Shown here piece by piece: positions 1 through 62,667 of a DNA stretch of 64,000 nucleotides; the stretch's first letter is position 1; the number at the start of each line of letters is the position of its first letter. The stretch spans positions 103,225 to 167,224 of the forward strand of contig CAWJNS010000005.1 in assembly GCA_963844275.1 (NCBI GenBank), read 5' to 3'. The DNA comes from an uncultured Verrucomicrobiae bacterium (GTDB lineage: Bacteria; Verrucomicrobiota; Verrucomicrobiia; Chthoniobacterales; UBA10450). The translations under genes were made by a program, and so were the position numbers. The notes under the pieces were generated by a model. That model was not told the DNA's origin. It did not search any database and saw only the letters and a list, made by a program, of their open reading frames with translations.

Positions 1-217
1 CGCGAAAGTGAAACAGCTGGCGGCCGTGGCCGATGACCTCGGGACCACGCTGCCGCGTCTCGCGCTCGCGTGGTGTTTGAAAAACGCCAACGTCAGCACC
101 GTCATCACCGGCGCGTCGAAGCCGGCGCAGGTGCGGGAGAATATGCAGGCAGGTGAGCTCGTGGATCAGCTGACGGATGAAGTGATGCAGCGGATCAGCG
201 GCATTCTCGATGGCTAA
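1..217 (+). CDS. aldo/keto reductase, C-terminal fragment (5' end upstream of window)
   Basis: ORF 8..217 stays open to the window edge. It carries the LALAWCL...VITGASKPAQVREN block typical of AKR/Kv-beta-like C-termini. Confidence 0.7.
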   Translation, partial: AKVKQLAAVADDLGTTLPRLALAWCLKNANVSTVITGASKPAQVRENMQAGELVDQLTDEVMQRISGILDG

Positions 218-1081
218 TCGCCGGTTCCCGCCCAGCTGCTAAGAAACGCGTCGATCAGCTCCGGCAGTTCATCGCTGTAGCCGCCCTCGAGGATGGCACC
301 GGCAGGCGCGCCGCAATCGCGTAGCCATTCGCCAAGGGTCGCGAAATCCTCCTGCTCCAGTGTCATCTCCATGATCGGGTCGCCTTGGTAGGCATCGAAG
401 CCGGCGGAAACGAGCAGCAGATCGGGATGGAATCCGAGCAAGCCGTCGAGCGCCCTGCGGATCTGTTCCATGTGCGCAGCGCGCGAGGCGCCCGGCGCCA
501 CGGGGTAGTTGCTGATGTTATCGAAGGATCGCGTGCCAGTGCCGGGCCAGCCGGGATATTGATGAATCGATGCGAAGGCGATGCGCGCATTCCCGTGCAC
601 AATCGCTTCCGTACCATTGCCGTGATGTGCATCGAAGTCCCAGATTGCCACCCGCTCCGCGCCTTGTTCGAGCGCGTCGAGCGCCGCGAGCGCGATGTTG
701 CTGAAGTAGCAAAATCCCATCACCTGATCGCGCGTGGCGTGATGTCCGGGCGGTCGCATCAGCGCGAAGCTGGCCTCACCATTTTCCGCGGCCTGCGCCA
801 CCTCCAGCGCCGCACCGGCAGCGCGCACCGCATGATGGTAGATGCCGCCATAGGCTGGGCAATCCGCGTCGAAATCTCCAGTCGGCGCGCGCACCGACTC
901 GAGATGCGCCGCTCGTGTGCGCTCGGAGCAGGGTCGCCTCTTCCGCTGGCGCCGGCGCCCGCCATTCCCACTCCGGGTGACGCTCCTTCAGCAACGGGAC
1001 GGTGCGCGTGATGCGCGCGGGCCGTTCCACATGGCCAGCGCGCCCGTACTCGGCGCAGTGCGGATCGTGGAAAATGATCAT
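214..1081 (-). pseudogene. histone deacetylase/acetoin-utilization (AcuC-like) family protein, one frame change
   Basis: The N-terminus lies in ORF 776..1081 (MIIFHDPHCAEYG...LLRAHT). The catalytic part lies in ORF 214..894 (MRPPGHHA, DFDAHHGNGT). The two frames join near 885-900. Confidence 0.85.
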
Positions 1082-1205
1082 GGCGGTGCTGAACGGTCTG
1101 CGCTGCGGTCCGCGCTTGCAATCGCGCGCTGCGCCCGGCGAGTGGAGCGGCGGCTATTTGAGTTGCGCGAAGCCGGCACGAGCAGAGCCATTCCGCCATC
1201 GAACG

Positions 1206-1532
1206 ATGGTTGATGCTCTCAGCAATTCGGTCTGGAACGCCAGCCGGAAAAGGCGTCTAATGGGTTATATGAAAAGGACACCCGAGGAAGTCGCAGATAC
1301 CATCGAGGCTCTTGTGAACGGCACTGGCAATCAATGGGCGTGGGACGATTTCACTTCGATCCGTCTGGATAATCCCGAGTTGGAGTCGATTCGACAGCAG
1401 GTTGTCTCGATCCCGACGGAGTTTCCGCCTTCGAACCTGCGGGACTATTGCAACGAGGCCGGCATGGACAAGATGCGGCAGATCGTGCGCGATCTCAGGG
1501 CACGCGCCGGTGGTGCGGCGCGGGCGGTTTAA
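1206..1532 (+). CDS. hypothetical small protein (orphan); start may be 1260
   Basis: This is the 3' part of ORF 1002..1532. Codon usage looks coding only downstream of ~1206. I recognise no family. Local GC is ~50-55% by hand count over 1261-1380. Confidence 0.4.
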   Translation: MVDALSNSVWNASRKRRLMGYMKRTPEEVADTIEALVNGTGNQWAWDDFTSIRLDNPELESIRQQVVSIPTEFPPSNLRDYCNEAGMDKMRQIVRDLRARAGGAARAV

Positions 1533-1544
1533 TCTGACGCGGCC

Positions 1545-3930: not shown

Positions 3931-6220
3931 TCAGAACGTCAGCGCGAGACCGGCGTAGCCGTTGATTCGCGGCGCCGGTTCAATGCCGTTGCCGAACACC
4001 CGGTTATAGTACTTTTTCGTCCCCCAAATTCGTGATCCCGGCGAGGATCCGCACGTTCTTGGTGATATCGTATTGTCCGGTCAGATTCACAACGACATAC
4101 GACGGCACTTTCGCTGGAATCAGGTCGTTGGCGGACGGGAGATTGGAGTCCTGCCAGTACTGCGATGAGACGTAGATACCGGAGAGGCTGATGTTGCAGC
4201 GCCGGTCGACGCGATAGGTGAGTGAGAACTTCGCCAGCACGGCAGGCGCAAAGGCCGGGGTGTTGCCGACAAAACTGCGCCCATTCGCGACCTGCGTGCT
4301 TTTGGTAAACTCCGCATCGAGCAATTGCAGGTTGGCGGCGACGATCAGGTGGCTGCCGGCCAGGGTCGGATTGTCGAACGGGGCGAAGAGATCGTAGGAA
4401 GCTTCACCCTCAAAACCGCGGTGCCGCGAGGAGCCGCTGTTGGCCAGAATGGTGTCGTTATTGACTCCGGGATTCACGAATTGCGTTTCCGTCCGGTTAT
4501 CGAATTCCATCCAGAACAGACCCACGTCGTACCAGAAGCCCTTCAGCGGAGTGCCGTGCACGCCGGCTTCGAAATCGAGGGAGGTAAACGGATCGCTCGG
4601 CTGCCCCGGCACAAAGGTCGCGGAGAAGGGCGAGACGACATCGAAATAGCGGAGCGGCCGCCATCCCGACGAAGCGTTGAAGTAAGTCTCGTTCGCTTTG
4701 CCAAAATCGTTCCCGAAGCCAATGCCCCAGAGCGGGACGGTGCGATTGACCGAAAGATCGGCGAGGGGCCGGCCCGGACGAGGACGGAAAGGTGAGATTA
4801 CCTCACGCACAGCCACCGTCTCGTGATCAAGCCGGAACGACGGCACGATGTGGAATTTTCCGAAGCGAAAGACGTTTTCGATGAAGACCGCTTCGTAATC
4901 GGAGTGCCGTTCCTGATCGAGTCGCGGCACGCCGGAGCGATCGTCACGGTCGACCGAAAGTCCGGCCGGATTCCCGATCGTGAACTGCTCGAAGGGCGCG
5001 TTACTGTGGTAGTAAACGCCGCCCGCGGTCAGGGCGCTGCCACGGCCCCATTTCAGGCGCGTCCGCACATCAGCGCCGAAGTTCTCGAAATCTTCGTTCT
5101 GCAGCTGGGTCGTCGCGGGCGGTTGGCCGGTGACGAGGTTGTTGTTACCCGCCGTCCGGCTGTCGAGCTCCAGGGTCGTGTAGTAGAGCTTCGTCTGGAG
5201 GAGCAGGTTCTCCGTCAACTCGCCGTCATATCCGAGCGAAATGTTGTAGCGGTCGACCCACTCGTGATTGTAAGGCGTGAGTGACTGGGATTCGTCTTGA
5301 TCGAAGAGAGCTTTGCTCGGGAGACGGCCGGGACTGCCGGCGCTCACGGAGTAGCCTTTGAAATCGAGGTAAAGCAGGTGCTTCTCGGCGGGTTGGTAGC
5401 CAACGAAAAGCGAACCGGTGTAAAGATTCGATTCCGAGTTCGTCCGCTGTCCGTCGCTGTGCAGGTAGCCGAAGTCCGCCCGATATGCGAGCGGGCCAGC
5501 GGTTCCTTCAGTGAAGTTGTAGGTCGAGTAGAGCCCGTTTCCGCCGCCGATCTGCTCGGTCGAAATCGTGAAGGGCGATCCCGGAACCGGCCGGCGGCTC
5601 ACATAGTTAATCGCCGGGGCAGGCTCCGGGCCATAGAGCAGGCTACTGCCGCCACGGATCACCTGGATTTCCGAGATGCTTTGCGGGAGTGGGAGGTAGT
5701 AAAGGGTGGGGAACCCGATCCAGTCGCTCATCAGCGGCACGCGGTCCTGCAGGACCGTGACGTATTCGGATTCCTGCGGATTGCCGAGGCCGCGGTAGCT
5801 GATGTTGAACTGGCTCGGCGTGTTTTGCTCGCTGATGAACACGCCCGGCGCGCGATTGAAAACGTCCTGCTGGTTGTTGTTAATGATCTGTGGCTGGAGG
5901 TCGAGTTTGATCGCGGTCGCCTTCTTCGTCACCGTGATCTCCGCGCCTGAGACTTCGCGCATGATGTGATCGAGCTTTGGCCGGAAATCATCGTGCGGGT
6001 GCGGAGTGGCCACTTCAGCGCCGGTGACAACGATGCGCGGAGCTTCGGAGGTGACCGCTTCCGTCGGGGCGTCATCGCCCCGTCGCGGGGAAAGGGAGCG
6101 TCTACTGGCAGGCTGTTGGGCGCGCGCGGGGGCGGCGCAGACGAGCAGAGTGGCGGTGAGAATCAGGGTGGCGCCGGCGGAGGTGAGGTTGGCGAAAAGG
6201 TTGCGGGAGATCTGTGGCAT
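3931..6220 (-). pseudogene. TonB-dependent outer-membrane receptor, frame change 80 nt before the true stop
   Basis: ORF 4004..6304 has a signal peptide from MPQISRNLF (6220), plug motifs (VLQDRVPL, IRGGSSLLYGPEP) and a beta-barrel. The canonical C-terminus YYNRVFGNGIEPAPRINGYAGLALTF* is in the adjacent frame (stop 3931-3933). The frames meet at the T5 run 4013-4017. Confidence 0.9.
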
Positions 6221-6229
6221 GCGGGGCGA

Positions 6230-6245
6230 ATTACAAAATTGTAAT
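6230..6245. promoter_or_regulatory. perfect 16-bp AT-rich palindrome ATTACAAAATTGTAAT, candidate operator in the divergent TBDR/GT2 intergenic region
   Basis: The half-sites ATTACAA/TTGTAAT are exact reverse complements. The site lies 10 nt upstream of the TBDR start codon and is strongly AT-rich in a GC-rich genome. Confidence 0.5.
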
Positions 6246-6330
6246 CTAACGCGCAATCTTTTTCTGGCAGGAACAAAACAACCTTGCTCCGCGGGCCGGT
6301 GCAATCGCCTCCGTCAGTGCGCGCTTGTGA

Positions 6331-7124: not shown

Positions 7125-8546
7125 TCAGGATGCGCTGATTATCGACGGGCGAGGGGCCGGCGACGGGAACATCAGGGTCACGGCGGTTCCGCGGCCTCCA
7201 TGACTCTCCACTTCCGCCGTGCCGCCGTGCAGATCCATGATCGACTTTACAAGCGCGAGTCCGAGCCCGGTGCCCTGCGAACTGCGCGAGGAATCGCCCC
7301 GGTAAAAACGATCGAACACGCGCGGCAAATGATCGGCCGGAATGCCCGGTCCGTTGTCGCGTACGGTCACACGCGTGCCGCGGTCGGTTGCCGAGACGGC
7401 GACGGAGATCGTGCCACCGTCGGGCGTGAAGCGCAGGGCGTTGTCAAGAAGGTTGCTGAGGGCGCGGCCGAACAGCATCTCATCTGCGTGCACCTGCCCC
7501 GCACCTTCGCAATGAATCTTCACGTGCCGCTCCTCCGCGAGCGTCTTGTAATATTCCGCCAGCTTCTCCAGCGCCGCCCGACCGTCGAAGGGCACCGGCT
7601 TGACCGGTTCCCGCGCCGACTCCGCGCGCGCCAGAAACAAGAGGCTGTCGATGATCGCGGAAAGTCGTTCACATTCGTCAACGCTTGATTCGATCACTTC
7701 GCGGTATTCCTCCGGGGCGCGTAAGCGCGTCAGCGCCACTTCTGACTCACCGCGCAGATTCGCGATCGGTGTGCGCAATTCATGCGCCAGATCAGCCGAG
7801 AACTGCGACAGCCGCGTAAACGAATCCTCCAGCCGGTCGAGCATTTCATCGAAGGCGATCGCCAGCGGTTGCAGCTCCCGCGGCCAGCCCGCGGGCGCGA
7901 CACGCTCGTTCAAGTGTGTCGGCCCGGTTCGGCGCAATGACTGCGTGATCTCGGCCAGCGGCCGCAGGGCGCGCTTGGTCACGCGGATCGCGACCACCGC
8001 CGAAACGATGATGCCAGCAAACAAAACGCCGAGAAAGAGCAGGCCAAATTCCTTCGTGAAATCGCTGTCTGCCGACCGGTCCTGCGCGACCTGCACCGTG
8101 TAGACCTGCCCGTCCGCTTCTTCGGTCGCCGCGACCAGCGCGAAGAGCTTGTCGGCGGAACGGTGATTGCGAACCTCGCGCAGTGGTCCGGTGTGGGCCG
8201 TGGGGGCGGGAAAAATCTCGCGCGGGAGCAAGGTCCCCATGCCCGGCGACTCCGCCACGGTGACACCCGCAGCATCAAACACGCGGATCCAGTAGGTTAC
8301 GCGTTCGCCGCTGCGCATCAGGCGCAGCTCGCCGCCCAGAAGTTGTGCGCCCCGGGTATTGTCGAGCTCGGCGCGCACGGCCGCGAGTTTGTCCGCCAGC
8401 ACGGCATTGTCTTCCGCAAACGCGTGCCGGATGACCATCCAGTACAGAATGCCAAGCCCGCAGCAAAGCACGACCGCCGCCGCAAGCGTGAAGAGGATGA
8501 CGAGCTGCGATGCGATCGAGCGCGGATTAGCCGGCTTTGAGAACAT
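7125..8546 (-). CDS. sensor histidine kinase, CusS/heavy-metal-sensor-like
   Basis: Has two TM segments plus a HAMP domain. H-box is HELRTPIANLRGE, N-box LLDNALRFTP, G-boxes DNGPGIP and GTGLGLALV. The likely start MFSKPANP at 8546 overlaps the regulator stop. Confidence 0.85.
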   Translation of the reverse strand: MFSKPANPRSIASQLVILFTLAAAVVLCCGLGILYWMVIRHAFAEDNAVLADKLAAVRAELDNTRGAQLLGGELRLMRSGERVTYWIRVFDAAGVTVAESPGMGTLLPREIFPAPTAHTGPLREVRNHRSADKLFALVAATEEADGQVYTVQVAQDRSADSDFTKEFGLLFLGVLFAGIIVSAVVAIRVTKRALRPLAEITQSLRRTGPTHLNERVAPAGWPRELQPLAIAFDEMLDRLEDSFTRLSQFSADLAHELRTPIANLRGESEVALTRLRAPEEYREVIESSVDECERLSAIIDSLLFLARAESAREPVKPVPFDGRAALEKLAEYYKTLAEERHVKIHCEGAGQVHADEMLFGRALSNLLDNALRFTPDGGTISVAVSATDRGTRVTVRDNGPGIPADHLPRVFDRFYRGDSSRSSQGTGLGLALVKSIMDLHGGTAEVESHGGRGTAVTLMFPSPAPRPSIISAS

Positions 8547-9198
8547 AACCGACCCCGCGAATCGTCTGCACCAGCTTGCGCTCAAACGGATCGTCCACCT
8601 TCGACCGCAACCGCCGCACCACCACGTCGACGACGTTCGTACTCGGCTCGAAAGCCATGTCCCACACCTGCGACACGATCTCTGCGCGCGACACTGCCTC
8701 GCCGCCGGCACGCGCCAGATGCGCGAGGAGCAGAAACTCCTTCGGGGTGAGGTTGAGCGCCACCCCGGCCCGCACCGCGCGGTTGCGGCGCGTGTCGATT
8801 TCCAAATCCTCCACCCGCAGCAACTCCTCGGTCCCCGCCGGGGAGCGCCGCAGCAGCGAACGCACTCGCGCCATTAGCTCGGAAAACGCGAACGGCTTCA
8901 CCAGGTAATCATCCGCGCCCAGCTCCAGACCCTTCACCCGATCGGGCACACTATCGCGCGCAGTCAGAAACAGGATCGGTGTCGTCACCCCCGCTTTGCG
9001 CAACTGCGCCACGACCTGCCAGCCGTCGAGCTTTGGCAGCATCACATCCACGACCAACAGATCGAAGCGGGTCGCGCGTGCCGCCTCGAAGCCACTTTCC
9101 CCATCGTGCGCCACCTCCACGGTGAGGCCCGCTTCCCGGAGCCCTTTTGCCAGAAAGGCTGCCGTCTTCTTTTCGTCTTCCACCACCAGGATGCGCAT
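8527..9198 (-). CDS. OmpR-family response regulator, CusR/CopR-like
   Basis: Receiver domain: MRILVVEDE...DLLVVDVMLPKLDG...DDYLVKPF. A winged-helix C-terminus follows. Confidence 0.9.
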   Translation of the reverse strand: MRILVVEDEKKTAAFLAKGLREAGLTVEVAHDGESGFEAARATRFDLLVVDVMLPKLDGWQVVAQLRKAGVTTPILFLTARDSVPDRVKGLELGADDYLVKPFAFSELMARVRSLLRRSPAGTEELLRVEDLEIDTRRNRAVRAGVALNLTPKEFLLLAHLARAGGEAVSRAEIVSQVWDMAFEPSTNVVDVVVRRLRSKVDDPFERKLVQTIRGVGYVLKAG

Positions 9199-9260
9199 CA
9201 GAGCGCCTTTATAGACGCTGCGCAGGATACCTCAACAACTCCGCGCCAAGCGCCTGCGAT

Positions 9261-11669
9261 TTAGTCTTTCGGCGCGAGTCGAGTCACGATCTGCTCGAAT
9301 CGGGGATCGCTGCGCATCGGATCCCAATAGGGGTGCAGGCGGAGATTACCGTAGCTCCAAAAGCTCGGCACCCCGGTGGCGATCTCGAGTTGCTCCAGCG
9401 CCAGATCCTGCTCGCCGGTCCACGCGTAGATGATGGCGAGAAAACCGACGAGGAGGGGACCGTTCAACGCGTCTTTGGCGGTCGGCAGCAAATCGACCGC
9501 GCGCCGGCCTTCGCGAATCGCGTCGTCTTTCCGCCCGAGCATGGCATCGGCCAGCGCCAGCACGCAGACCGCGCCGGCATTATCCGGCGCCTGTTCGATG
9601 AGGTGCGCGGTCTCGTCCCGCGCCTGGGCGAACGCCTGTTGGGCTGCCTCTTTGTCGTTACGCAAGCGCGCGGCCCATCCTTCGCACCAGCTGGCGGGAA
9701 ACGGCAGCGCTTCCGTCTGGCAGCCTCCGTCGCGCGCATCCGCCAGCGCCCTGGCCGCTGCGGACGGGTCCCGCTTGAGGAGCGCAAGATCGATGCGGTG
9801 ATCGACGATCTTGCGCGCGCTCTCCGGGTCTTCCGCCAGGGCCGCCTCCACCACGGCATGGAGGCGGGCCGTGTCCGCGCGCCAGTCCACGTCCACCGCC
9901 GCTCGTTGCGCGCGCGCGACGATGTCGCCCGGGGAGAGGCGAACGACACGATCGAGCACCTGCGCCATCTCGGGGAATCGGCGCTGGTTAAAATAGGTCA
10001 ACGCAATCTGTTGCAGGATGTAGCGGTTGTTCGGATCCAGCTCGAGCGCGAGTTGCAGGTTGCGCGTCGATTCTTCCCACCGGCCCTGACGGCGATCGAG
10101 GTATCCTCGGACCAGTGGGATGGTCGGGTCGTTAGGCAAGGCGCCTTCCGCGAGGGCCAGTTCCGCCCGCGCCATCTCGTAATCGCCCTGCCCCCAGTAG
10201 AGATGCTTGGCACGGGCAAGGTGCGCTTCGCCGGAAGCGGGCTGCAGTTGTTCGACCTTGCGAATGGCTGCCTCCGCGGCCGTCAGACGCGCCGGCGTGG
10301 GGTCAAAGCGCAGGTAAAGCTGATCGTGCGCGTGGGCCAGCTGGTAGAAGGCGAGCATGAATTTCGGATCGAACTCGCCGGCCTTGGTGAGCAACTCGAC
10401 CGCGCGCAGCAGGTCTTCCCGGGCGGTGGCGCTGAAGACGGCGGCGTCGATCAGATCCTTCGCCTCCACGTAAAGATCATGGGCCACGACGTTCTCCGTC
10501 GATTGCCTTTGGATCGCAGCCCGTTCCTTGGGTGAGAGCCGAATGCGCAACTGGGCGGTGATTTGCCGCGCGATCTGGGTTTGAATCGCCAGCGAGTCGT
10601 TCAATTTCTCATCATAGCTGTCCGCCCAGATGGTGGTGTCTGTCGCCGCCTCGACCAGCTGCGCCCGGACCCGGACGGAAGGGCCCATGCGCTGCACGCT
10701 GCCTTGGAGAACGTGTGTGACGCGCAGGTCCTTCGCGATGTCGCGGAGGTTGCGCTGGAGGTTGGCGGCATATTGCATCGCCGAGGTTCGGTTGATGACC
10801 TTGAGCCCGCTGATGCGCGACAGATAAGTGAGGATGTCGTCCTGCACGCCGTTCGCGAAAATCGTGTTAGTCGGGCCCTCGCTGACGTCGGCAAACGGCA
10901 GCACCGCCAGGCTGTAGCCGGTGGGCCCCGGGCGCAGAAACCACCACGCTGCGAGCGCCAGCGCCGCGACGAGGAGCGCCCCGACGGCCACGGTTCTCCG
11001 CCGGGCCGCCGGCCGCCGCTGCAATCTCGCGGCCGCCCCTGCGTCCGCATCCTGCTGCGCATGTTGCTGCTGCACCTTCTGCGGCAGGGTCGGATTACCG
11101 ACATTGTCTTTGCACAAGTTGAAGAGGTGAATTCGCAGCCCGTGCTTCACCTCGCACTCGCCGATGTCGCGCAGGTAGGGGTGCCACTGGCGATAGGAAC
11201 TGAGGTCCTCCGCCACGCGTTTCGACACGAGAATGTGCCCCGCGTCGGCGCAATCCAGCACCCGCTGCGCAACGTTAATGCCAGCGCCGGCGAAATTGGC
11301 GCGGTCGTTGACATCGGATACCTCCTTGATGGGGCCACTGTGCACCCCCATTCGCAGGAGCAGGTGCGGGAACTCCTGCGCCGCCGAGCTGATTTCGAGG
11401 GCGCATTGGACCGGCGCCTCCGGGCTGTCGAAGAACAGGAGTGCCATCCCATCGCCAGTCGGCAGGCGCGTGAGCTGGCCGCTGGCTTCGGCGTCCCGGA
11501 AGCGGGTGGCGTTGCGCACCACCTGGTTGAGCTGTTGCAGCACCTCGATCTGCTCGTTCACGAGCAGTTTGGAGTAACTCACGACGTCGATCAGCAGGAC
11601 GTGAGCGATCTCCGGCTTCAGATCGGCCCCGTTGTCAGTAGTTGTCTGCAAGGGATTTCCTCCAGCCAA
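9261..11669 (-). CDS. class III adenylate/guanylate cyclase domain - TM - TolB-like periplasmic domain - TPR repeat protein
   Basis: Intact 802-aa ORF. The cyclase-like N-terminus has LIDVVSYS, PTGDGMALLF, RMGVHSG and INVAQRV. One TM segment follows, then LAVLPFADVS...VLQGSVQR (TolB_N-like) and a long TPR region. Confidence 0.8.
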   Translation of the reverse strand: MAGGNPLQTTTDNGADLKPEIAHVLLIDVVSYSKLLVNEQIEVLQQLNQVVRNATRFRDAEASGQLTRLPTGDGMALLFFDSPEAPVQCALEISSAAQEFPHLLLRMGVHSGPIKEVSDVNDRANFAGAGINVAQRVLDCADAGHILVSKRVAEDLSSYRQWHPYLRDIGECEVKHGLRIHLFNLCKDNVGNPTLPQKVQQQHAQQDADAGAAARLQRRPAARRRTVAVGALLVAALALAAWWFLRPGPTGYSLAVLPFADVSEGPTNTIFANGVQDDILTYLSRISGLKVINRTSAMQYAANLQRNLRDIAKDLRVTHVLQGSVQRMGPSVRVRAQLVEAATDTTIWADSYDEKLNDSLAIQTQIARQITAQLRIRLSPKERAAIQRQSTENVVAHDLYVEAKDLIDAAVFSATAREDLLRAVELLTKAGEFDPKFMLAFYQLAHAHDQLYLRFDPTPARLTAAEAAIRKVEQLQPASGEAHLARAKHLYWGQGDYEMARAELALAEGALPNDPTIPLVRGYLDRRQGRWEESTRNLQLALELDPNNRYILQQIALTYFNQRRFPEMAQVLDRVVRLSPGDIVARAQRAAVDVDWRADTARLHAVVEAALAEDPESARKIVDHRIDLALLKRDPSAAARALADARDGGCQTEALPFPASWCEGWAARLRNDKEAAQQAFAQARDETAHLIEQAPDNAGAVCVLALADAMLGRKDDAIREGRRAVDLLPTAKDALNGPLLVGFLAIIYAWTGEQDLALEQLEIATGVPSFWSYGNLRLHPYWDPMRSDPRFEQIVTRLAPKD

Positions 11670-48784: not shown

Positions 48785-48796
48785 CCGCGGCTGTGC

Positions 48797-49788
48797 TTAC
48801 GGCACCGGCAGGCCGGCGAAGATCCGCTCGATGATCTGTCTCGCTCGTGATCGTCTCCGCTTCCGCTTCGTAGCTGACGATGATGCGGTGGCGCAGGACG
48901 TCGGTGCCGATGCTCTTGACATCCTGCGGCGTGACGTAGCCGCGGCCGTTGAGGAACGCGTGGGCGCGCGCGGCGAGCGCGAGGTAGATCGTGGCGCGCG
49001 GCGACGCGCCGTAGCGGATCAGGCCGTCGAGCTTCAGGTTGTAGGTCGCCGGCTCGCGCGTCGCCCAGACCACATCGACGATGTAATCCTTCACCCGATC
49101 ATCGATGTAGATGCTGTTCACGACGGCGCGCGCGGCGATGATCTGCTGCGGGATCGACCACCGGCGAGACGCTCAGGTTCGGCGCGGACGTGGCCATCAG
49201 ATCGAGAATGCGGCGCTCCTCCGCCTTCGTCGGATAGCCGACGTTCAGCTTCAACATGAAGCGATCGAGCTGCGCTTCCGGCAGTTGATAGGTGCCCTCC
49301 TGCTCGAGCGGATTTTGCGTCGCGAGGACGAGGAACGGATCGGAAAGCGGATACGTCTGTGTCGCCGATCGTGACCTGCCGCTCCTGCATCGCTTCGAGC
49401 AAGCGCGCTCTGCACTTTCGCCGGCGCGCGGTTGATTTCGTCGGCCAGGATCAGGTTGGAAAAGAGCGGGCCGAGCTTGGTCGTGAACTCGCCGCTGCGC
49501 GGATTGTAGATCAGCGTCCCGATCAAATCGGCGGGCAGCAGATCGGGCGTGAATTGCAGCCGCTGAAAGCCGGTCTGGATCGCGGCCGCCATCGTTTTGA
49601 CCGTCAGCGTTTTCGCCAGGCCCGGCACGCCTTCGAGCAGGATGTGGCCATTCGCGAGCAGGCCGAGCAACAGCCGATCGACGAGGTATTTTTGCCCGAT
49701 GACGACATGGCCGACTTGCTCGCGCAGCGCGGGAATCCATTGCGCCCAGTTCCTGCACTTCGCGCGTGATTTCCTGCGTCGATTTCAT
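48797..49788 (-). pseudogene. MoxR-family AAA+ ATPase, several frame changes
   Basis: Walker A region [54 protein letters not shown] and GASPRATIYL are spread over three frames. Confidence 0.9.
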
Positions 49789-49877
49789 AAGAGAACGGTT
49801 GAGACAGGTGCGGCCGGAGGAATGTTCGATCAAACCTCCCGCGCACGGACTCTGTGCCGGAAAGTCGCCGGCGTCGA

Positions 49878-51274
49878 CTACTCTTCCGGTCTGCTCCGCG
49901 GCGCGACAGGTAAGGAGGACGGGCAAACCGGGATACGGCTCGGCCTGCCGGATGCGGCTTTCGATGATAGCGAGCGTAGGTGTCGCTGAGGAGCTTCGGC
50001 TGATTGACGAAGAGGATGAATTTCGGCGGATCGATCGCGCGCTCATCGTCCCCGGCGATTGCGCGGCGTAGAAGAGCTTCAGCCGCTTGTTGCCGATCGT
50101 CGGCGGCAGGGTCTCGGCTCAAACGCGGCGCGCAGGAGGCGGTTGAGAACGCCGGTGCCGATGCGCACCTCCGCGCCGCGCTGGATATCCGCGATGCGAT
50201 CGAAAAGCTGCGTCGACATTTTCGCCCGTGCGCGGAGGCGACCAGACCGGCGCGTAATCGAGAAAGAAGAGCTGCTCGCGCGTCGTGCGTGATGAGGTCG
50301 TTGCATCGCCGCCTTTGCGCCGCGCGCCGGCTTCACGAGGTCCCATTTGTTCAGAACCACGAGCGACGGTTTGCGCGCCTCCTGGATCAGCCCCGCGATC
50401 TTTTTGTCCTGCGATGTGACGCCGCTGCGTGACGTCGATCACGAGCACGCAGAGGTCGGCGCGGCGGATCGTCCGCTCGGCGCGCATCACGCTGAAGACT
50501 TCGACCGAGGTGGAATGTTTGCTCCGGGCGCGCATGCCGGCGGTGTCGATGAGGAGAAACTTCTCGCCACCGCGTTCGTACGGCAATGTCGACCGCGTCG
50601 CGCGTCGTGCCCGGGATGCTGCTGACGATCGTGCGGTCGTCGTGCAGGATGGAATTGATGAGCGACGACTTGCCGGCGTTCGGGCGGCCGACGATGGCGA
50701 GCGCAAGCGGCGGCCGTTCGATGTTCGTGTCGGACGTTGGGCATTCGGCGCTTCCACCGGCAGCAGCGTCATCGATAATTTCGAGCAACCTCCGAATCCC
50801 ACGTCCATGCGCCGCGCTGATCGGAATGACGTGCGTCGAACCCGAGCGCGCGAAAATCCGACTCCAGCGCTTCGTGTTTCGGATGGTCGATCTTGTTCAC
50901 CACCAGCACCACCGGCGTGCGCGATTTGCGCAGCATCCGCGCCAGTTCCTGATCGATCGGCGCGAGCCCGTGCTGCGCGTCGACGACGAAGAGGATCACG
51001 TCGCTCTCGCGCATCGCCGCGTCGGCCGCCGTGCGAACCTGCGAGGTCAGTTCAGTTTCGCCAGCGCCGCCGATTCCGCCGGTGTCCCAGATCAGGAATG
51101 GCCGTGCGCCGCGCGTGCAGGGCGCGGCCAGTCGATCGCGCGTGATGCCCGGCTGATCGTGCACGATCGCGATGTTGCGCCCGGCCAGCCGGTTGAAGAG
51201 GGCCGATTTGCCGACGTTCGGCCGCCCGACGATCGCAACTTTGCCGGCAGATCTTCGGCGTTCGGTGTGTTCAT
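49878..51274 (-). pseudogene. der: ribosome-associated GTPase Der/EngA, many frame changes
   Basis: Two G domains are present: VAIVGRPNVGKSALFNRL...DTGG...NKID and [19 protein letters not shown]. The KH-like C-terminus has [13 protein letters not shown]. The 3' end is inferred from a shifted frame. Confidence 0.9.
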
Positions 51275-51300
51275 GGGTTGCGCGGATCGCGCACGGGCGA

Positions 51301-51908
51301 TCAGTCGACTTTCGCGTTCGCGTGCCCGCCGGCCTGCAACTGCCGCACGCCGTCGCAGCACGTAGATCATGCCGGAAATGAGGGTGAACAGCCCCGCGGC
51401 CGCGACCACATAGGTCAGCGGGAAGAAATGCAGCTGCAGCATGACCCACGCGATCGCCGCCATTTGCAGAACGGTCGCCACTTTTCCGGTCCAGCTCGTG
51501 CGCACGATGACCGTGCCGTTGAGCAAATGGAGCACCGCGCTGCCGACCAGAATGACGACATCGCGCGTGATCACCAGCACCGGAAACCAGACCGGGAACT
51601 GGCCGTAGTGCGGGATTGCGCTGCTCCAATTGCTGATGCTCAAGGTGATGATGCCGCTCAGCAGCAGGCCTTTGTCGGCGATCGGATCGAGGATCATGCC
51701 GAGCGAGCTGCGCTGGTTGTAGCGCCGCGCGACATAGCCATCGAGGCCATCGCTCGCCGCGGCGACGAGGAAGATGATGATGGCGGTGAAACGCTGCCAT
51801 TCCAGCGGCTCGCCCCTGCGCGACGCTTTGCCCGTAGTAGATCGCCATCGTGACGAAGGCCGGGATCAGCAAAATCCGGACGATGGTGATTTTGTTAGCG
51901 GTCGTCAT
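51301..51908 (-). pseudogene. pgsA: CDP-diacylglycerol--glycerol-3-phosphate 3-phosphatidyltransferase-like (CDP-alcohol phosphatidyltransferase), 2-3 frame changes
   Basis: N-terminus MTTANKITIVRILLIP. The reconstructed motif AAASDGLDGYVARR...ILDPIADK is split between frames. The stop at 51301-51303 is in a shifted frame. Confidence 0.8.
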
Positions 51909-52032
51909 GGCGCGAAGGCTAAGGAGCGAATCGCGCGAGAAGTTGCAACAATTTCTGCCGCCGCGTCTGGCGAGTGCAAGCTCAAATCACTTGGTCTGCG
52001 CGCGCGCCCGAGCGTAAAATGCAACTCGCCCA

Positions 52033-53031: not shown

Positions 53032-53388
53032 ATGACCACTAGCCTGCGCGAGTCCGATTTGGAGGAAACGTTCGCGCGTTCCGGGGGCCCGGGCGGGCAG
53101 AACGTCAACAAGGTCTCCACAGCGGTGACGCTGCGGCATCGACCCAGCGGGCTGAGCGTGACGGTGCAGGATTCGCGTTCGCAGGCGATGAATCGCAAAC
53201 TCGCGCGCGAGCGTTTGCTCGAGGCACTCGTGCGCCGGCAGGCCGGCGAGCGCGCCGCGCGCAAGGCGGAGCGCGAGAAGATCCGCCGCCAGAATTCGCC
53301 CCGACCGCGGGCGTTGAAACGGCGCATCCTGGAGACGAAACGCAAGCGTTCGACGCTCAAGAAACTCCGCAGCACAGTCGGCGAGTGA
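53032..53388 (+). CDS. ArfB-like peptidyl-tRNA hydrolase / class I release-factor domain protein
   Basis: The GGQ motif (RSGGPGGQNVNKVSTAV) is followed by a basic C-terminal tail. Confidence 0.75.
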   Translation: MTTSLRESDLEETFARSGGPGGQNVNKVSTAVTLRHRPSGLSVTVQDSRSQAMNRKLARERLLEALVRRQAGERAARKAEREKIRRQNSPRPRALKRRILETKRKRSTLKKLRSTVGE

Positions 53389-54452
53389 AGCGGGCGGGGA
53401 AGCGCAAGCCGGCGAAGATCAATCTCGGCATCATCGGCACTGGCTGGCCGGGCCAGCAGCACGCGCGGGTGACATCCGCGCATCCGGAAGCGCTCGGCTC
53501 TACGCATGCGCAGATCTCGATTCGGAAAGACGCGCGCGTCGAATTCCAGCAAACCTACGCGCCGCGAAGAAGTTTCCGCGATTATCACGAACTGCTGCAG
53601 GATCCGGAGGTCCACGCGGTCGTCATTTGTCTGCCGAACTTCCTCCACTTCCCCGCGTCCCGGGCCGCGCTTGAAGCCGGGAAACACGTCTTCTGCGAGA
53701 AGCCGCCGACTCTGAACGCGGCGGAAATGAAGGTGCTGCACGAGGAGGCGCCGGAAGCGCGGCCTGGTTTATTTTTTCGGCCGACAATTTCGATTCACGC
53801 CCGCGATGCGCGCGGCGAAGAAGCTCGTCGAGGCGGGACGGCTGGGGCAAATCTATCACGCGCAAGCGACATGGGTGCGGTCGCGCGGAATCCCGCAAGG
53901 GGATCGGTGGCTGGTTTACAGCAAAGGAACGTGCTCGGCGGTGGCGCTCTCATCGACATCGGCGTGCATGCGCTCGATTCGGTCGTGGTATTTAATGGGA
54001 ACGCCGACGCCGTTTCCGTCAGCGCTCAGGTTTACCGCAATTTCGAACACCTGGTGCGGGCCCCATCTTCGACGTCGAAGACGCGGCGTTTGGCTTCATC
54101 CGTTTTGACAATGGGGCGGTCGTCCACCTGGAAACTTGCTGGGCCGGCAATCTGCCCGGACGACATTCCGGAGGGGCAGGAATTTGGTCGCGAGATCAAC
54201 AATTCCATCATCTACGGGACTCGCGGGACGATCCGGCTGAAGCCGTTAACCTTGTTCGAAGATCAGGCAGGTGCGCTGGTCACCGTGCCGGTCGAGCTGC
54301 CCGATGAGATCGAGGGTTTCGAGCTTCAACTGCGCAATTTCCTCGACGCAATCAGCGGGCGCGCGGAAGCGATCAATAACGCCGACCAGGCGGTAACGTT
54401 AATGGAAATGCTCGATGCAATCTATGCCTCGAGCGCCTCGGCCGGGAAGTGA
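53385..54452 (+). pseudogene. Gfo/Idh/MocA family oxidoreductase, homology hops between frames although one ORF stays open
   Basis: Frame of the open ORF: NLGIIGTGWPGQQHA, VVICLPNFLH, EKP, GGGALIDIGVHALD. Frame of ORF 53806..54108: MRAAKKLVEAGRLGQIYHAQATWVRSRG and WYLMG. A third frame: FDVEDAAFGFIRFDNGAVVHLE. Confidence 0.75.
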
Positions 54453-55050: not shown

Positions 55051-57643
55051 CTATTCAGCGGCGACTGGTTCGGTCTCTTCGGCCTCCTGGCTCACGACCG
55101 GCGCGATGCCTGCAGCTTCTCGGCGCCCCGCAGATCCATCAGCTTCACGCCCATCGTGTTGCGTCCGACGGCGCGGATTTCCTTCACGCGCGTCCGCACC
55201 ATCTGGCCTTTGTTCGTGATGAGCATCAGTTCGTCGCTATCGGTCACGGTGAGCGCGCCGACGACTTTGCCGGTTTTCTCGCCGGTCTTCATCGTGATGA
55301 TGCCTTTGCCGCCGCGCGATTGCGTGCGGTAATCGTCAAACGGCGTGCGTTTGCCGATGCCGTTCTCGCCCGCCACGAGCAGCATGGCGTTCGGGTTCAC
55401 GATCGCGATCGCGACGATGACGGTCGCCTTTGTCCGGCCGGATGCCCCAGACGCCGACGGTGTTGCGGCCCTGGTCGCGCAGCTGCTCCTCGTGGAAGCG
55501 CAGGCTCATGCCTTGCTTGCGTGATGAGCACGATCTCGTTGTCGCCGTTGGTCAGCTTGGCGTCGATCAGGCAGTCGTCTTCCTCGATCTGGATGGCGAT
55601 GATGCCGCCTTTCCGGACGTTGCTGTAGTCGGAGAGATTCGACTTCTTCACGATGCCGGACCGCGTCGCGAAGACGATGTGGAGATTTTCGTCCCACGTT
55701 TCGTCGACGATGTTCGGCCCGGTGCCGGACTTCTTCGCCTGGACGCGAATCGTGGCGGCGATCTTCTCGTCGCTGCGCAGCTCGAGCAGATTGGCGATCG
55801 AGCGGCCTTTGGCCGCGCGGCCCATCTCGGGAATTTCGTAGACCTTCTCGACGTAGCAGCGGCCCGATTCGGTGAAGAACATCAGGTAATCGTGCGTCGT
55901 CGCGGTGAAGAGATGCTCGACGAAATCGCCTTCGTCCTCCTGCGTGGCGCCTTCGCGCGTCGGTCATGCCGATGACGCCTTTGCCGCCGCGGCGCTGCGC
56001 GCGGAAGGCGCTCACGGCCGTGCGCTTGATGAAGCCGCCATGCGTGATGCTGATGATGCATGCCTTCATTGGCGATGAGATCCTCCATGTTGATCTCGCC
56101 CTCGTCGGGCACGAGCTGCGTCAGGCGCGGGCCGGCGTGCTTGTCGCGGATGTCGCGCAGCTCCTTCTTGATGATCTCGAGCACGCGCGATTCCTTCGCG
56201 AGGATGTCGCGCAGGTCCTGGATCGTCGCGATCAGCGCCTTGTATTCCGTTGATGATCTTTTCGCGCTCGAGACCGGTGAGCTGATAGAGGCGCAGATCG
56301 AGGATCTGGTTGGCCTGGTGTTCGCTGAAAGCGTAACGGCCCTCGACGAGGCGCGCTTCGTTGCGGATCAGGATGCCGATCTGCTCGACCTGCCGCCGGG
56401 TGAACTCGAAGGCGAGCAGCTTGACCCGCGCTTCTTCGCGATTCGCCGAACCGCGGATGATGCGGATGAATTCGTCGAGATTCGCCAGCGCGATGAGATA
56501 GCCTTCGAGCGTCTCCGCGCGGTCCTCGGCCTTGCGCAGCTCGAAGCGCGTCCGGCGCAGCACGACCTCGCGGCGATGCTCGATGTAGGCGGTGTTCGCG
56601 TCCTTGAGTGAGAGCAGCTTCGGCCGGCCGTGGTCGATCGCCAGCATCGAGGCCGCGAAGGAGCTCTCCAGCGCGGTGTGCTTGTAGAGATTGTTGATGA
56701 CGACCTTCGGATTGCGCGTCGCGCTTCAGCTCGATGACCACGCGCGTGTTTTCGTCCGACTCATCGCGGATCGCGGTGATGTCGGTCAGCACTTTCTCGT
56801 TCACCAGGTCCGCGATGCGCTCGACCAGCGTCGCGCGATTCACGTTGTAGGGAATCTCGGTGATGACGATCTGCTCGCGGTTGCCCTTCAGCTCTTCGAC
56901 GCCGGCCTTGCCGCGCACTTTCATGCTGCCGCGGCCGGTCTCGAGATACTGCTGAATGCCCGGCGAGGCCCGAGGATCGCGCAGCCGGTCGGGAAATCCG
57001 GTCCCTTCACGTACTTCATCAGTCCGTCGAGATCGATGTCGGGATCGTCGATCTGCGCGCAGATGCCGTCGATCACTTCGCCGAGATTGTGCGGCGGGAT
57101 GTTCGTCGCCATGCCGACGGCGATGCCGGTGCCGCCATTGACGAGCAGATTCGGGAACGCGGCCGGGAAAACTGTCGGCTCGGTCCGGGTCTCGTCGTAG
57201 TTCGGGACAAAGTCGACCGTGTCCTTGTCCATGTCGGTCATGAGCGCGGCGCCGAGATGCGTCATGCGCGCCTCGGTGTACCGCATCGCCGCCGGCGGAT
57301 CGCCTTCGACCGAACCGAAGTTGCCCTGGCCGTCGACGAGCGTCTCGCGCATGGCCCACGGCTGCGCCATGTGCACGAGGGTGGGGTAGATCACCGCTTC
57401 GCCGTGCGGGTGATAGTTACCGCTCGTATCGCCGCAAATCTTGGCGCACTTCCGATGCTGCCGGTTCGGGAAGAGCGACAGATCGTGCATCGCATAGAGG
57501 ATGCGACGCTGCGAGGGCTTCAGCCCGTCGCGCGCATCGGGCAGCGCGCGCGAGATGATGACCGACATCGAGTAATCGAGAAACGACCTCGACACTTCCT
57601 CGGCGACGTTGATCGGCTCGATTTTTTCGTTGGGATTATACAT
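55051..57643 (-). pseudogene. gyrA: DNA gyrase subunit A, many frame changes
   Basis: N-terminus [52 protein letters not shown], followed by [10 protein letters not shown] (active-site Tyr region). The beta-pinwheel C-terminal repeats lie in alternating frames. The true stop at 55051-55053 is in a shifted frame. Confidence 0.95.
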
Positions 57644-57659
57644 GCGCGCGCGGGATCGA

Positions 57660-60266
<2,607 letters not shown>

Positions 60267-60484
60267 GAACTAGCCAAAAGATAGGCGAGGACCGGGGTCG
60301 GAACAATAACTTTCTCTTCGCTCGAGCGGCCGGTAAACCACTACGGAGTGCGCACCCGCGCCAGCCAAACCGCATTATGTTGTGGCAGGCTCGGATGGCG
60401 GCGAACGTGACCCGCCTCCACCTTTTGCGCTCGCATGCGACGCTTGACCGGCCTGCTCCGGAACCCGACCTTACGCCTCCAAGC

Positions 60485-61115
60485 ATGCGCTGGCAGACAC
60501 TCTATGAAGGTCGCTGGATCTTCGCCATTCTTGCCCTGCTGGCGATCGCCTCCGCCTTCGCAAGTCTCTGGCTGACGCTGCTGTTCGTGGCGCTGATCCT
60601 CTACACGCTCGCGTTCTTTCGGGACCCGGAACGCACGCCGCCGGCGGATGCCGACGGAGTCGTGGCCGCGGCCGATGGGGTGGTGGCCGACATTGTCGAG
60701 ATCGAGGAACCCGATGTCGTGAAGACGCAGGATGAAACGCATCGGCATCTTCCTTTCCGTCTTCGACGTCCACACGAACCGCGCGCCGATCGACGGCCGC
60801 ATCACTTTCCGGGAACACCGCGAAGGTCTCTGTCTGGATGCGCGCAACCCGGAGTGTTCGGGGAAAAACGAGTCAATGATCTGGGCGTTCGAGAATCCGC
60901 GCGCCACGCTGGTGGTCAAACAACTCACAGGCGCGATCGCCCGGCGGATTGTCGCGTGGTCAAGGGTGGGGGACGAGCTAAAGAAAGGTGAGCGTTTCGG
61001 GATGATCCGCTTCGGCTCGCGGACGGAAGTTTATTTGCCGCTCGACGCTACCGTTCTGGTGAAGGTGGGCGACCGTGTGGCCGGCGGAGCGACCTCAATC
61101 GCTCGGCTGCCCTAG
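60485..61115 (+). pseudogene. psd: phosphatidylserine decarboxylase (short, Asd-type), one frame change near 60730
   Basis: The TM N-terminus and FFRDPERTPP are in ORF 60377..60991. IFLSVFDVHTNRAPIDG...MIRFGSRTEVYLP (GS self-cleavage motif) is in ORF 60732..61115. Confidence 0.9.
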
Positions 61116-61116
61116 T

Positions 61117-61950
61117 ATGAGCAACGGCGACCCCAAGATTTACCTGCTGCCGAACTTGATGACGGCAGGCAATCTTTTTTGCGGCTTTGCAGCGACGTTA
61201 AAGATCGTGCAAGGCGCGCTCCTGCAGGGCACCGATCCTGACGGCGCCGCCGTGCTCTTTCACACCGCCATCTGGTACATCCTGGGCGCGTGCATTTTTG
61301 ACCTGCTGGATGGCCGGCTCGCGCGTCTCGGCGGACAGGACAGCCCGTTCGGGCGCGAATTTGATTCGCTCGCTGATACCGTCTCGTTCGGTCTCGCGCC
61401 TGCGCTGATGGTTTACCGCATCGTGCTGGTGGATTTTCCCCGCGTTGGCTGGGTGGTGGCGTTCATTTATCTGCTCTGCGGGGCGCTGCGGCTGGCGCGA
61501 TTTAACTGCATCGCCAGCACGGGCAAGCAGGGCACCGCTGACAAGAATTTCCGCGGCTTTCCCATCCCGGCGGCGGCGGGGCTGATCGCCTCCATCACGC
61601 TCTTCATGCTCTGGTGGCTGGGCGAACGAGATCACGACATCGGCCGCTGGAAATGGGTTCTGCCGCCGCTCATGCTTTTCCTTTCCTTCATGATGTTCAG
61701 CCGGTTCAGCTACCCGAGCTTTAAGGGGATCAACTGGCGGACGACGCGGTCGGTGCCGCGCTTCCTTGTCATCAGCACGGTGCTGATTTTCACCGCCCTC
61801 AACTACGAGTGGATGCCGGCGATCCTGTTCCTTTCCTATCTTCTTTACGGGTTCGTGCGGCCGTGGCTCTCGAAGGCCTGGCGGCGCGAGATCGAGGAGG
61901 AGATCGAGCACGAGTCGGACGCCGCGGAGGGCGCCGAGCAGACGCCGTAG
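61117..61950 (+). CDS. pssA: CDP-diacylglycerol--serine O-phosphatidyltransferase
   Basis: Intact ORF with the CDP-alcohol motif DLLDGRLARLGGQDSPFGREFDSLAD. Confidence 0.9.
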   Translation: MSNGDPKIYLLPNLMTAGNLFCGFAATLKIVQGALLQGTDPDGAAVLFHTAIWYILGACIFDLLDGRLARLGGQDSPFGREFDSLADTVSFGLAPALMVYRIVLVDFPRVGWVVAFIYLLCGALRLARFNCIASTGKQGTADKNFRGFPIPAAAGLIASITLFMLWWLGERDHDIGRWKWVLPPLMLFLSFMMFSRFSYPSFKGINWRTTRSVPRFLVISTVLIFTALNYEWMPAILFLSYLLYGFVRPWLSKAWRREIEEEIEHESDAAEGAEQTP

Positions 61951-61951
61951 C

Positions 61952-62667
61952 CTAGCGGTTCAACTGCGCGAGCACTTCCGGATCGCGCACGTCGGCCCAG
62001 TCGCCGGTTAACTCCAGGGCCTGCACCTTGCGTCCGGCCCGCGCGAGATCGCGCACCGCATCGGTCAGTTCAAATTCGCCGCGCGGTGATCGCTCCAGGC
62101 GCGCGATAAAATCGAAAATGCTGCGGCCGAAACATGTAAACGCCGGCGTTGTACCACGGACTCGTCGGTTCGCCCGGGCGTGGCTTCTCGCGCAGGTCGG
62201 TCATTTCGAATTTGTCGTTCACAAACACGGCGCCGCCCTGGCTCACATCCTCGTTTCGTTTCACGCTGATGATTGCCTCCACGTCGTTCGCGGGGGCTGC
62301 GAGGCGCTGGTAATTGGATGCCTCCACCAGAATGTCGCCGTAGCTGAGAAGGAATGGATCGTCGCGCGCAAAAATCGCGCGCGAGTTCGACCACCTTGCC
62401 GGTGCCATCCTGGACCACCTGGGTGGCGTAGCTGAGGCGGACGTCGAAACGCGCGCCGTCGCCAAAGAACTCGCGCACCATCGCACCGCGCCAGCCTACG
62501 ATCAGCAGCAGCTCTCGGATCTGCGCCTGCCGCAGGCCCTCGATGATGTGCTGCAGAATTGGCCGGCCCTGCACCACCAACATCGGCTTCGGCAACTCAT
62601 TCGTCAGCTCCCGCATGCGCGTGCCGCGGCCGGCCGCGAGCAGCACCGCTTTCGTGATTCCAGCCAT
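61952..62667 (-). pseudogene. sugar-phosphate nucleotidyltransferase (NTP_transferase family), 2-3 frame changes
   Basis: MAGITKAVLLAAGRGTRMRELTNELPKPML (GxGTR signature) comes first. LLSYGDILV...NAGVYMF is in the frame of ORF 62070..62486. The C-terminus ends ...AQLNR* at 61952. Confidence 0.8.

Follow-up and report, generated by a model that had tools for sequence, protein, structure and literature searches.

A 64,000-nt stretch of a contig from an uncultured Verrucomicrobiae soil bacterium of the order Chthoniobacterales (hereafter the window) raises the question of whether many of its genes, including indispensable single-copy genes such as gyrA, gyrB and valS, are genuinely interrupted by frame changes or merely appear so in the assembled sequence. 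The evidence points to the second answer. The pattern is very probably a long-read consensus artefact consisting of approximately 90 spurious extra bases, probably produced when both alleles of co-occurring strains were written in tandem. The extra bases occur singly, occasionally in twos, and accumulate in conserved housekeeping genes. Every one of them shifts the reading frame, and as a result about 25 intact genes look broken, while the real genes of the organism are almost certainly whole.

The extent of the frame breaks is apparent from a self-trained codon Viterbi decoding of the whole window, which yields 80 same-strand frame switches, a few of them true gene boundaries, with 1, 2, 6, 10, 10, 18, 16 and 17 switches in successive 8-kb segments. 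Among the approximately 55 recognisable genes, about 25 are verified as requiring a frame change to be read at full length (Table 1), which is about what the initial annotation had estimated (about half of the genes, or at least 28 loci). Intact orthologues from relatives can be placed on the window only as chained pieces in differing frames, as is the case for GyrA, GyrB, Psd, the NTP-transferase, MoxR, Der, PgsA, GlyRS, MurI, ValS, CstA and others. Once stitched across frames, GyrA, GyrB, ValS, GlyRS and Der all become full-length matches to NCBIfam models. The stitched GyrA joins nine frame pieces into a single continuous match to model positions 2-792 of 798 (1091.8 bits). Along its entire length (100%) it shares 90-95% identity with 120 full-length GyrA proteins, and the stitched GyrB spans model positions 5-803 of 803.

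Table 1. Genes and regions of the window, their frame changes and the supporting evidence (coordinates are window positions).
Feature	Coordinates	Strand	Frame changes	Evidence
HDAC-like deacetylase gene	214..1094	-	2 frames, junction ~910-924	Viterbi; three-frame read; 322-aa orthologue (L153) aligns in 2 frames
TonB-dependent receptor (TBDR) gene	3931..6304	-	one extra base in run 4013-4017; last 26 residues lost	Pfam Plug and TonB barrel
Control region (histidine kinase, response regulator, TPR/cyclase gene)	7153..11144	-	no indel	
ADOP/FtsX-type permease gene	18437..21065	-	3, at ~20880, ~19981 and ~19303 (the last net -1 or +2)	Viterbi; three-frame reads
FGE-sulfatase-like gene	22584..23914	+	2 net +1, at ~22874 and ~23517	Viterbi; three-frame read
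glyQS (glycine-tRNA ligase)	25156..26537	+	3 inserted bases: 25539, 26031, 26154	466-aa orthologue (L083) aligns in 4 pieces; stitched GlyRS matches NCBIfam NF003211 (591 bits); 26154 confirmed against contig L166 (97.3% identical)
murI (glutamate racemase)	28534..29376	-	2 inserted bases: 29060, 28732	alignment of relatives; NCBIfam
valS	30561..33213	+	11 inserted bases: 30953, 31074, 31374, 31553, 31592, 31856, 32051, 32100, 32144, 32204, 32609	stitched ValS matches NCBIfam NF004349 (922 bits); intact 905-aa ValS in L085 and L086; 9 events seen directly against L164
cstA	33930..36079	+	12 events, 14 inserted bases: 34367, 34633-34634, 34653, 34691, 34756, 34818, 34933-34934, 35195, 35493, 35553, 35628, 35875	direct comparison with L167; backbone of 25 relatives
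485-aa conserved gene	38904..40316	-	1 inserted base (39517-39522)	
UvdE/AP-endonuclease-like gene	40389..41527	-	at least 1 net +1 (~40903)	383-aa orthologue (L094) in 3 frames; three-frame read
626-aa BatD-like gene	42236..44092	-	2 inserted bases: 43411, 43041	
moxR-bat operon (TPR protein, BatB, BatA, DUF58, MoxR)	44632..49817	-	~25; base-level positions outside 44.6-48.0 kb; 5 resolved insertions in MoxR (49743, 49402, 49359, 49152, 48837); events also in DUF58	Viterbi; NCBIfam BatA and BatB matches extend over several frame pieces
der (GTPase EngA) and pgsA	49888..51942	-	der at least 5 (50856, 50584, 50427, 49965, others); pgsA 2 (51821, 51357)	stitched Der matches TIGR03594 (335 bits); PgsA matches TIGR00560
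Gfo/Idh/MocA oxidoreductase gene	53384..54452	+	at least 3 events	Viterbi; 2 relatives only, confidence lower
gyrA	55107..57650	-	8 inserted bases: 56972, 56965, 56716, 56248, 56059, 55961, 55519, 55421; one net -1/+2 near 55109	see text
gyrB	57661..60314	-	6 resolved inserted bases: 59982, 59632, 59549, 59442, 59423, 58210; 2-3 net -1/+2 (58718, 58347, ~58136)	see text
psd	60464..61115	+	1 inserted base (60729)	
NTP-transferase gene	61953..62667	-	2 inserted bases: 62366, 62128	

With this many interrupted genes, the window could be taken to carry real pseudogenes of a degenerating lineage. Genome decay, however, produces indels of both signs together with nonsense mutations and deletions, and it spares essential genes. 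Here, indispensable single-copy genes are interrupted repeatedly (9 times in gyrA, 9 in gyrB and 11 in valS), and the events are nearly all of the +1 type. The pieces retain 76-95% protein identity to relatives, and the 11,429 aligned codons contain no internal stop codons and no large deletions. In addition, short-read contigs that are 93-97% identical to the window carry the genes intact. Genuine decay is therefore extremely improbable.

These near-conspecific sequences, which are MEGAHIT-style k141 short-read contigs with 93-97% nucleotide identity to the window, allow the direction of the changes to be read directly. Relative to them, the window has 29 bases extra and 1 missing, the latter in non-coding sequence, and so the mixture of extra and missing bases described in the initial annotation is not borne out. 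The individual comparisons give 10 extra and 0 missing bases against L164 (95.6% identity), 2 extra against L166 (97.3%), and 18 extra and 1 missing, the non-coding one, against L167 (93.3%). ValS (a 682-aa partial ORF on L164), CstA (a 657-aa partial ORF on L167) and the C-terminus of GlyRS are all intact on these contigs. In the control region, comparison with short-read contigs L168 and L169 (97.3-98.4% identity) reveals no gaps, and a further contig, L170, has a single gap relative to the window, which lies in intergenic sequence beyond the region (position 7120). Several of these 93-98% identical strains (L164, L166, L167 and L169) reside in one ENA sample, ERZ27267964. When the edge-truncated ORFs of L164, L166 and L167 were used as queries for further strains, they were absent from the protein collection, and a search with the Viterbi-stitched CstA returned no additional near-conspecific strains, its best match reaching 77% identity as a consequence of imperfect stitching in this gene.

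Some apparent 1-nt deletions relative to distant relatives, such as that at cstA 34937, turn out to be 2-nt insertions once compared with a close contig. Thus, the corresponding “deletions” in gyrA, gyrB, der and the permease gene could be either -1 or +2 changes.

The nearly uniform +1 sign could also be expected from programmed recoding, whether by +1 frameshifting on the ribosome at many sites, by slippage during transcription or by RNA editing. This is a most improbable explanation, as the sites occur in the window alone and are absent both from the orthologues of more than 100 relatives and from the near-conspecific contigs. In addition, the sites share no common slippery or stimulatory motif, they are without the long A/T runs needed for transcriptional slippage, and other long-read MAGs are interrupted elsewhere in the same genes. 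It is just as implausible that the organism's DNA truly contains the extra bases and that its essential genes are nevertheless expressed, with translation skipping dozens of +1 sites or the transcripts losing them, which would be a bacterial parallel to the +1 frameshifting that is widespread in Euplotes; the intact contigs used for comparison represent strains 93-97% identical to the window and not necessarily the same cells.

The type of sequencing or consensus error is a separate matter. The four junctions that the initial annotation had traced to the base are located where it placed them (TBDR 4013-4017, valS ~30953 and 31074-31082, and the permease gene at ~19300), and from these it had generalised that the junctions sit in short homopolymers and that the errors are of the homopolymer-length or flow-chemistry kind. 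Neither generalisation extends to the window as a whole. A test set of 54 cleanly resolved one-base insertions was analysed using protein-score candidate sets and simulated nulls, an approach adopted because MAFFT codon-slot positions against distant relatives are too ambiguous. Homopolymer-length miscalling of the nanopore R9, 454 or Ion Torrent type, which would yield indels of either sign, is compatible with the short runs at some junctions (A5 at 4013-4017, GGG at 30953, CCC at 34368 and GGG at 32051) and, in total, with the 22 events (41%) that could involve a run of at least 2. Random insertion, however, would give approximately 50% by the same measure, and for runs of at least 3 the observed and expected values are 22% and 17%, such that neither class exceeds random insertion. 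The remaining 32 of the 54 insertions (59%) involve no run of 2 or more and are not explicable as a change in homopolymer length, and contact with a run of at least 4 is confined to 2 events. Errors in homopolymers usually tend towards deletions or go in both directions. The observed ratio of 29 extra bases to 1 missing, together with a bias in codon phase that such errors would not be expected to generate, makes this explanation highly unlikely.

The four example sites belong to the minority that touch a short run. At the TBDR site, deleting one A from the A5 run restores the C-terminus ...EKYYNRVFGNGIEPAPRINGYAGLALTF and its stop codon, and the site can be described either as an A4 to A5 expansion or as an AAA/AAG third-position pair; the valS site at 30953 is likewise equally readable as a GGG/GGC pair.

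In 38 of the 54 events (70%), the insertion creates a pair of different bases at a third codon position, either of which can be deleted to give the same protein, compared with 36-43% under composition-based nulls and 45% under a null matched for neighbour context (three nulls, P <= 5e-5). The same signature recurs in 18 of 23 insertions from independent long-read relatives. Moreover, both bases of the pair are found at that column among relatives for 34 of the 38 pairs. If each insertion represents a pair of alleles, about one-quarter of the events, located after the first or second codon position, would require non-synonymous polymorphisms.

Random, context-free insertion errors in a low-coverage long-read consensus, unlinked to strain polymorphism, would account for events that are insertion-only and non-homopolymeric, and no 2-4-mer around the insertions, methylation-like or otherwise, is enriched after correction for multiple testing. 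Insertions anchored by near-conspecific contigs are adjacent to a third position in 15 of 21 cases, which is indistinguishable from the two-thirds expected under a uniform distribution among codon slots. Mismatches to these contigs are not enriched beside gaps, although such a test has no power to separate the models. However, the reading frame should be invisible to a random process, and the pair signature appears in two independent sets and survives the neighbour-context-matched null. The extreme clustering of events in particular genes (14 inserted bases within the 2-kb cstA versus none at 7.1-11.1 kb) would also be hard to obtain from uniformly low coverage. This explanation is therefore conceivable, but on balance doubtful. 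Taken together, the predominance of insertions, the lack of homopolymer enrichment and the third-position bias point to a consensus formed over mixed strains.

Such a consensus could arise if reads from co-occurring strains, a few per cent apart, were merged into a single path wherever segments are conserved. The sites that differ between such strains would mostly be synonymous third codon positions, and a consensus or polishing step may then write both alleles in succession (for example, CTG and CTC becoming CTGC), with a net change of +1 that bears no relation to homopolymers. One site, 34367/8, can be viewed in two strains of sample ERZ27267964, the others being covered by a single strain: here, L164 has CTG, L167 has CTC, and the window has CTG-C-CCG. 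Collapse of this kind has precedent in Flye, which merged strains of approximately 98.7% identity into one consensus (Strainberry paper, PMC8302730). Event density correlates weakly with gene conservation (Spearman 0.37, p = 0.04), and divergence from the single available co-occurring strain is no simple predictor of it, in that genes of 87-90% identity have no events.

The assembly types of the relatives also differ in this respect. Of 80 loci of relatives, 18 are of the long-read type, and 9 of these carry one-base insertions in gyrA or gyrB, whereas the approximately 62 short-read loci have essentially no such insertions; long-read type here denotes Microflora Danica (MFD) 'contig_N' MAGs and similar records, as judged from record titles and contig names. 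In other long-read MAGs, the same genes are interrupted at other positions, and the long contigs L081 and L082 have other genes split, such as DAO, which is intact in the window. The MFD long-read MAGs derive from R10.4.1 Nanopore reads that were assembled with Flye and polished once with Medaka but not with short reads, and MFD soils have high microdiversity (PMC12313526). The contig that contains the window is most probably also a long-read-only assembly, given its size, source and error signature. Thus, the initial attribution to long-read consensus indel error rather than biology is upheld by the intact near-conspecific ORFs, the lack of internal stops and the restriction of such events to long-read MAGs among the relatives.

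These observations amount to no biological finding, and their practical value is as a warning to users of long-read MAG catalogues. The public protein collection contains exact copies of the truncated GyrA (240 aa) and ValS (129 aa), derived from the same 233,368-bp NCBI and ENA contig, and so the errors are present in the deposited record. The prediction that automatic annotation would be fragmented has therefore already come true, with gene pieces from the contig circulating as separate public proteins. Completeness, phylogenomic and pangenomic analyses would be affected if marker-gene pipelines use genes such as gyrA, gyrB, valS, glyQS and der. Because the errors are not of the expected homopolymer type, they would escape filters or polishers designed around homopolymers. 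Strain-aware polishing would be the remedy if the mixed-allele explanation is true, and insertion density could then serve to flag strain-collapsed segments of assemblies.

The window resembles several known systems to differing degrees. It shares with the pseudogene-rich genomes of Mycobacterium leprae and recent endosymbionts a large fraction of interrupted genes, but those genomes spare essential genes and carry mixed lesions, whereas the window has essential genes hit repeatedly, by +1 or +2 insertions only and with no stops. It is likewise similar to Nanopore-only assemblies and MAGs (IDEEL test; Sereika et al. 2022, PMC9262707; MFD, PMC12313526), in which one-base indels split genes and fragment gene calls on long contigs that were not polished with short reads, and MFD relatives carry the same kind of event. 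However, the residual Nanopore indels in the literature are attributed mainly to homopolymers, unlike the non-homopolymeric, synonymous-position-biased insertions seen here. In strain collapse during long-read metagenome assembly (PMC8302730), the reported outcomes are mosaic consensus sequences and lost strains, with tandem writing of alleles as a +1 insertion being what we infer for this window; common to both are co-occurring strains, here 93-98% identical, and errors that fall in conserved genes, where collapse would be expected.

The frame breaks reported in the initial annotation are real and affect about half of the genes, some 25 broken genes being verified among roughly 55. Six-frame Viterbi decoding, under a codon model trained on Pfam-confirmed ORFs, yields 80 same-strand frame switches in the window, distributed very unevenly (1, 2, 6, 10, 10, 18, 16 and 17 per 8 kb). 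The intact GyrA (882 aa) and GyrB (883 aa) of the relative L001 each align as at least five consecutive window pieces in differing frames, as do, in multi-frame pieces, the relatives' Psd, NTP-transferase, MoxR, Der, PgsA, GlyRS, MurI, ValS, CstA, a 485-aa protein, a UvdE-like protein and a 626-aa BatD-like protein; the pieces thus belong to single genes. When Viterbi pieces are concatenated and scored against NCBIfam equivalog models, the stitched GyrA aligns without a break to model positions 2-792 of 798 (1091.8 bits, cut-off 902) and GyrB spans positions 5-803 of 803, while ValS, GlyRS and Der score 922, 591 and 335 bits, and PgsA, MurI, CstA, BatA and BatB also match their models. Across its entire length, the stitched GyrA shares 90-95% identity with 120 full-length GyrA proteins.

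The genes of the window (63% G+C) most resemble those of soil Chthoniobacterales MAGs (Verrucomicrobiota, Udaeobacter-like), with a top GyrB fragment identity of 97% at the protein level, about 78-82% nucleotide identity and synteny kept over 48-64 kb. Identical copies of the window's ORF products occur in the public protein collection (NCBI and ENA), all on one 233,368-bp contig, and the truncated ORFs (GyrA, 240 aa, window 56924-57643; ValS, 129 aa; others) are exact entries from that same contig. The errors therefore sit in the deposited sequence, and the fragmented automatic annotation that had been foreseen already exists in public entries.

Some features of the locus stand apart from the frame breaks. 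In the relatives L081, L082 and L083, osmC is followed by glyQS within about 100-200 bp, whereas the window has about 9.4 kb extra between them, a segment with few frame breaks that looks like a strain-specific accessory island. The window also has a predicted low-complexity protein with no family assignment (see table). In another relative, L037 (OZ244652.1), the gyrA stretch delimited by tblastn spans 7.3 kb and contains three large blocks (1135, 1513 and 778 nt) missing from every other relative, which could be insertions, mobile elements or an artefact of region delimitation.

Coordinates of the sites, alignments and segments discussed (inserted bases in brackets)
Feature	Window position	Details
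gyrB insertion	59632	GAG TTT[C]AAG
gyrB insertion	59423	GAG[A]GTC
gyrA insertion	55961	ACC[G]ACG
gyrA insertion	56716	GAC GCG[C] AAT, common to the window and L078; relatives alternate GGC / GCG
Proposed tandem alleles	34367/8	window CTG-C-CCG; L164 CTG CCG; L167 CTC CCG
A5 run	4013-4017	removal of one A brings back the canonical TonB-dependent-receptor end ...YAGLALTF and stop
Intergenic extra bases	38853, 38887, 38900; 28522; 7120	first three within 50 nt upstream of the 485-aa gene
Contig L164	31154-34610	95.6% nucleotide identity; 10 window-extra, 0 missing bases
Contig L166		97.3% identity; 2 window-extra bases
Contig L167	34096-39978	93.3% identity; 18 extra, 1 missing base (36086, non-coding)
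Control contigs L168, L169	7153-11144	zero gaps against the window
Extra osmC-glyQS segment	15773-25155	lipase-like, ADOP permease, DUF1223, GNAT, FGE-sulfatase-like genes
Low-complexity protein	14319-14939 (-)	repeated motif T-R-G-N-S-x-F-G-H-x-Q-G-D with Ala/Lys/Arg-rich linkers between

The most telling comparison is with near-conspecific contigs, found through 90%-identity protein clusters and short-read in style by their MEGAHIT 'k141_' names. They encode ValS in an unbroken ORF of 682 aa and CstA in one of 657 aa, and their alignments to the window are listed in the table. The ENA sample ERZ27267964 contains several such relatives of the window, 93-98% identical. Gene by gene, identity to L167, one co-occurring strain, ranges from 87% to 97.6%, a variation that suggests strain recombination or a mosaic consensus. 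For genes with many intact orthologues, the window was added to the relatives' codon alignment and window-specific indels were listed; nearly all events are single inserted bases, the majority outside homopolymers, and indispensable genes carry 9-12 events each. An apparent 1-nt deletion in cstA relative to distant relatives is a 2-nt insertion relative to a close contig, so +2 events may likewise underlie the handful of "deletions" still listed for gyrA, gyrB, der and the permease. Because extra bases relative to the near-conspecific contigs also occur between genes, the process extends beyond coding sequence, although some of these bases could be true strain differences.

Several findings speak against a biological cause for the breaks. 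Indels apart, not one of 11,429 aligned codons is an internal stop, and the gene pieces are conserved to the same degree as intact orthologues; the insertion sites are not common to orthologues, nor is any motif enriched around them. Among 80 relatives' loci, nine MAGs of long-read type (L023, L026, L027, L036, L040, L050, L054, L076 and L078) carry one-base insertions in gyrA or gyrB, with nine in the gyrB of L027 alone, and essentially none of about 62 short-read assemblies does, these classes being taken from record titles and contig names. Different genes are split in L081 (JGI, 185 kb) and L082 (ENA, 63 kb) than in the window: DAO is split there and whole in the window, and murI the reverse. 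Taken together with the intact short-read-style contigs, these observations make it very probable that the frame breaks are an assembly or consensus artefact, as had been proposed.

Two coincidences among independent long-read assemblies are also seen, the gyrA insertion common to the window and L078 and a one-base insertion in the same or an adjacent codon of gyrB in L023 and L076, and they indicate that polymorphism or error recurs at particular sites. Homologues of the ValS N terminus, among the best 120 listed, are all 312-569 aa long against a full length of about 905 aa; several lie within contigs of 0.2-1.3 Mb, many of the rest are contig-end fragments, and split valS genes seem common in long-read assemblies of the lineage.

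The mechanism first suggested, error in short homopolymers, does not fit the base-level evidence. The four junctions originally traced lie at the positions reported, but those examples come from the smaller share of events that lie at a short run. For each of 54 single-base insertions that could be cleanly resolved, all single-base deletions restoring the best protein alignment to the relatives were enumerated, and random insertions into intact relatives, treated identically, served as the null. Runs of identical bases, even of length two, play no part in 32 events (59%); runs of at least two are compatible with 41%, against about 50% for random insertions, and runs of at least three with 22%, against 17%. 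There is thus no homopolymer enrichment.

The insertions also bear a signature tied to the reading frame. In 38 of the 54 events (70%), the ambiguity involves two different bases, the codon third position and the base just after it, such that the protein is the same whichever is removed. Frame-blind random insertion errors, the competing account of the artefact, would give 36-43% such pairs, depending on base composition, or 45% if inserted and flanking bases are matched to those of the observed events (P = 3e-5). Both bases are found at that column among relatives in 34 of the 38 pairs, and the signature recurs in independent long-read relatives, in 18 of 23 single-base insertions (P = 2.6e-4). 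Sequencing error should be blind to reading frame and natural polymorphism is not, which suggests that, where strains differ, the extra base is the other allele, placed in tandem after the first. At one site both alleles are seen directly (34367/8), the two contigs that differ there coming from one ENA sample, ERZ27267964. On the other side, the 21 conspecific-anchored insertions alone have a codon-slot distribution indistinguishable from uniform, and about a quarter of events would require non-synonymous polymorphisms if alleles were written in tandem. Clustering of events per gene tracks conservation only weakly (Spearman 0.37, p = 0.04), and divergence from the one co-occurring strain compared does not account for it. 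Given an artefact, then, these sequence patterns lean somewhat toward tandem writing of mixed alleles, with frame-blind insertion a possible but less probable source.

There is no new biology here, and the point is a methodological one: conserved genes of long-read MAGs can carry a class of error that is non-homopolymer, insertion-only and biased to synonymous sites. The Microflora Danica long-read MAGs come from soils of high microdiversity; R10.4.1 Nanopore reads were assembled with Flye and given a single Medaka round, with no polishing by short reads (PMC12313526). Flye merges similar strains into a single consensus (PMC8302730).
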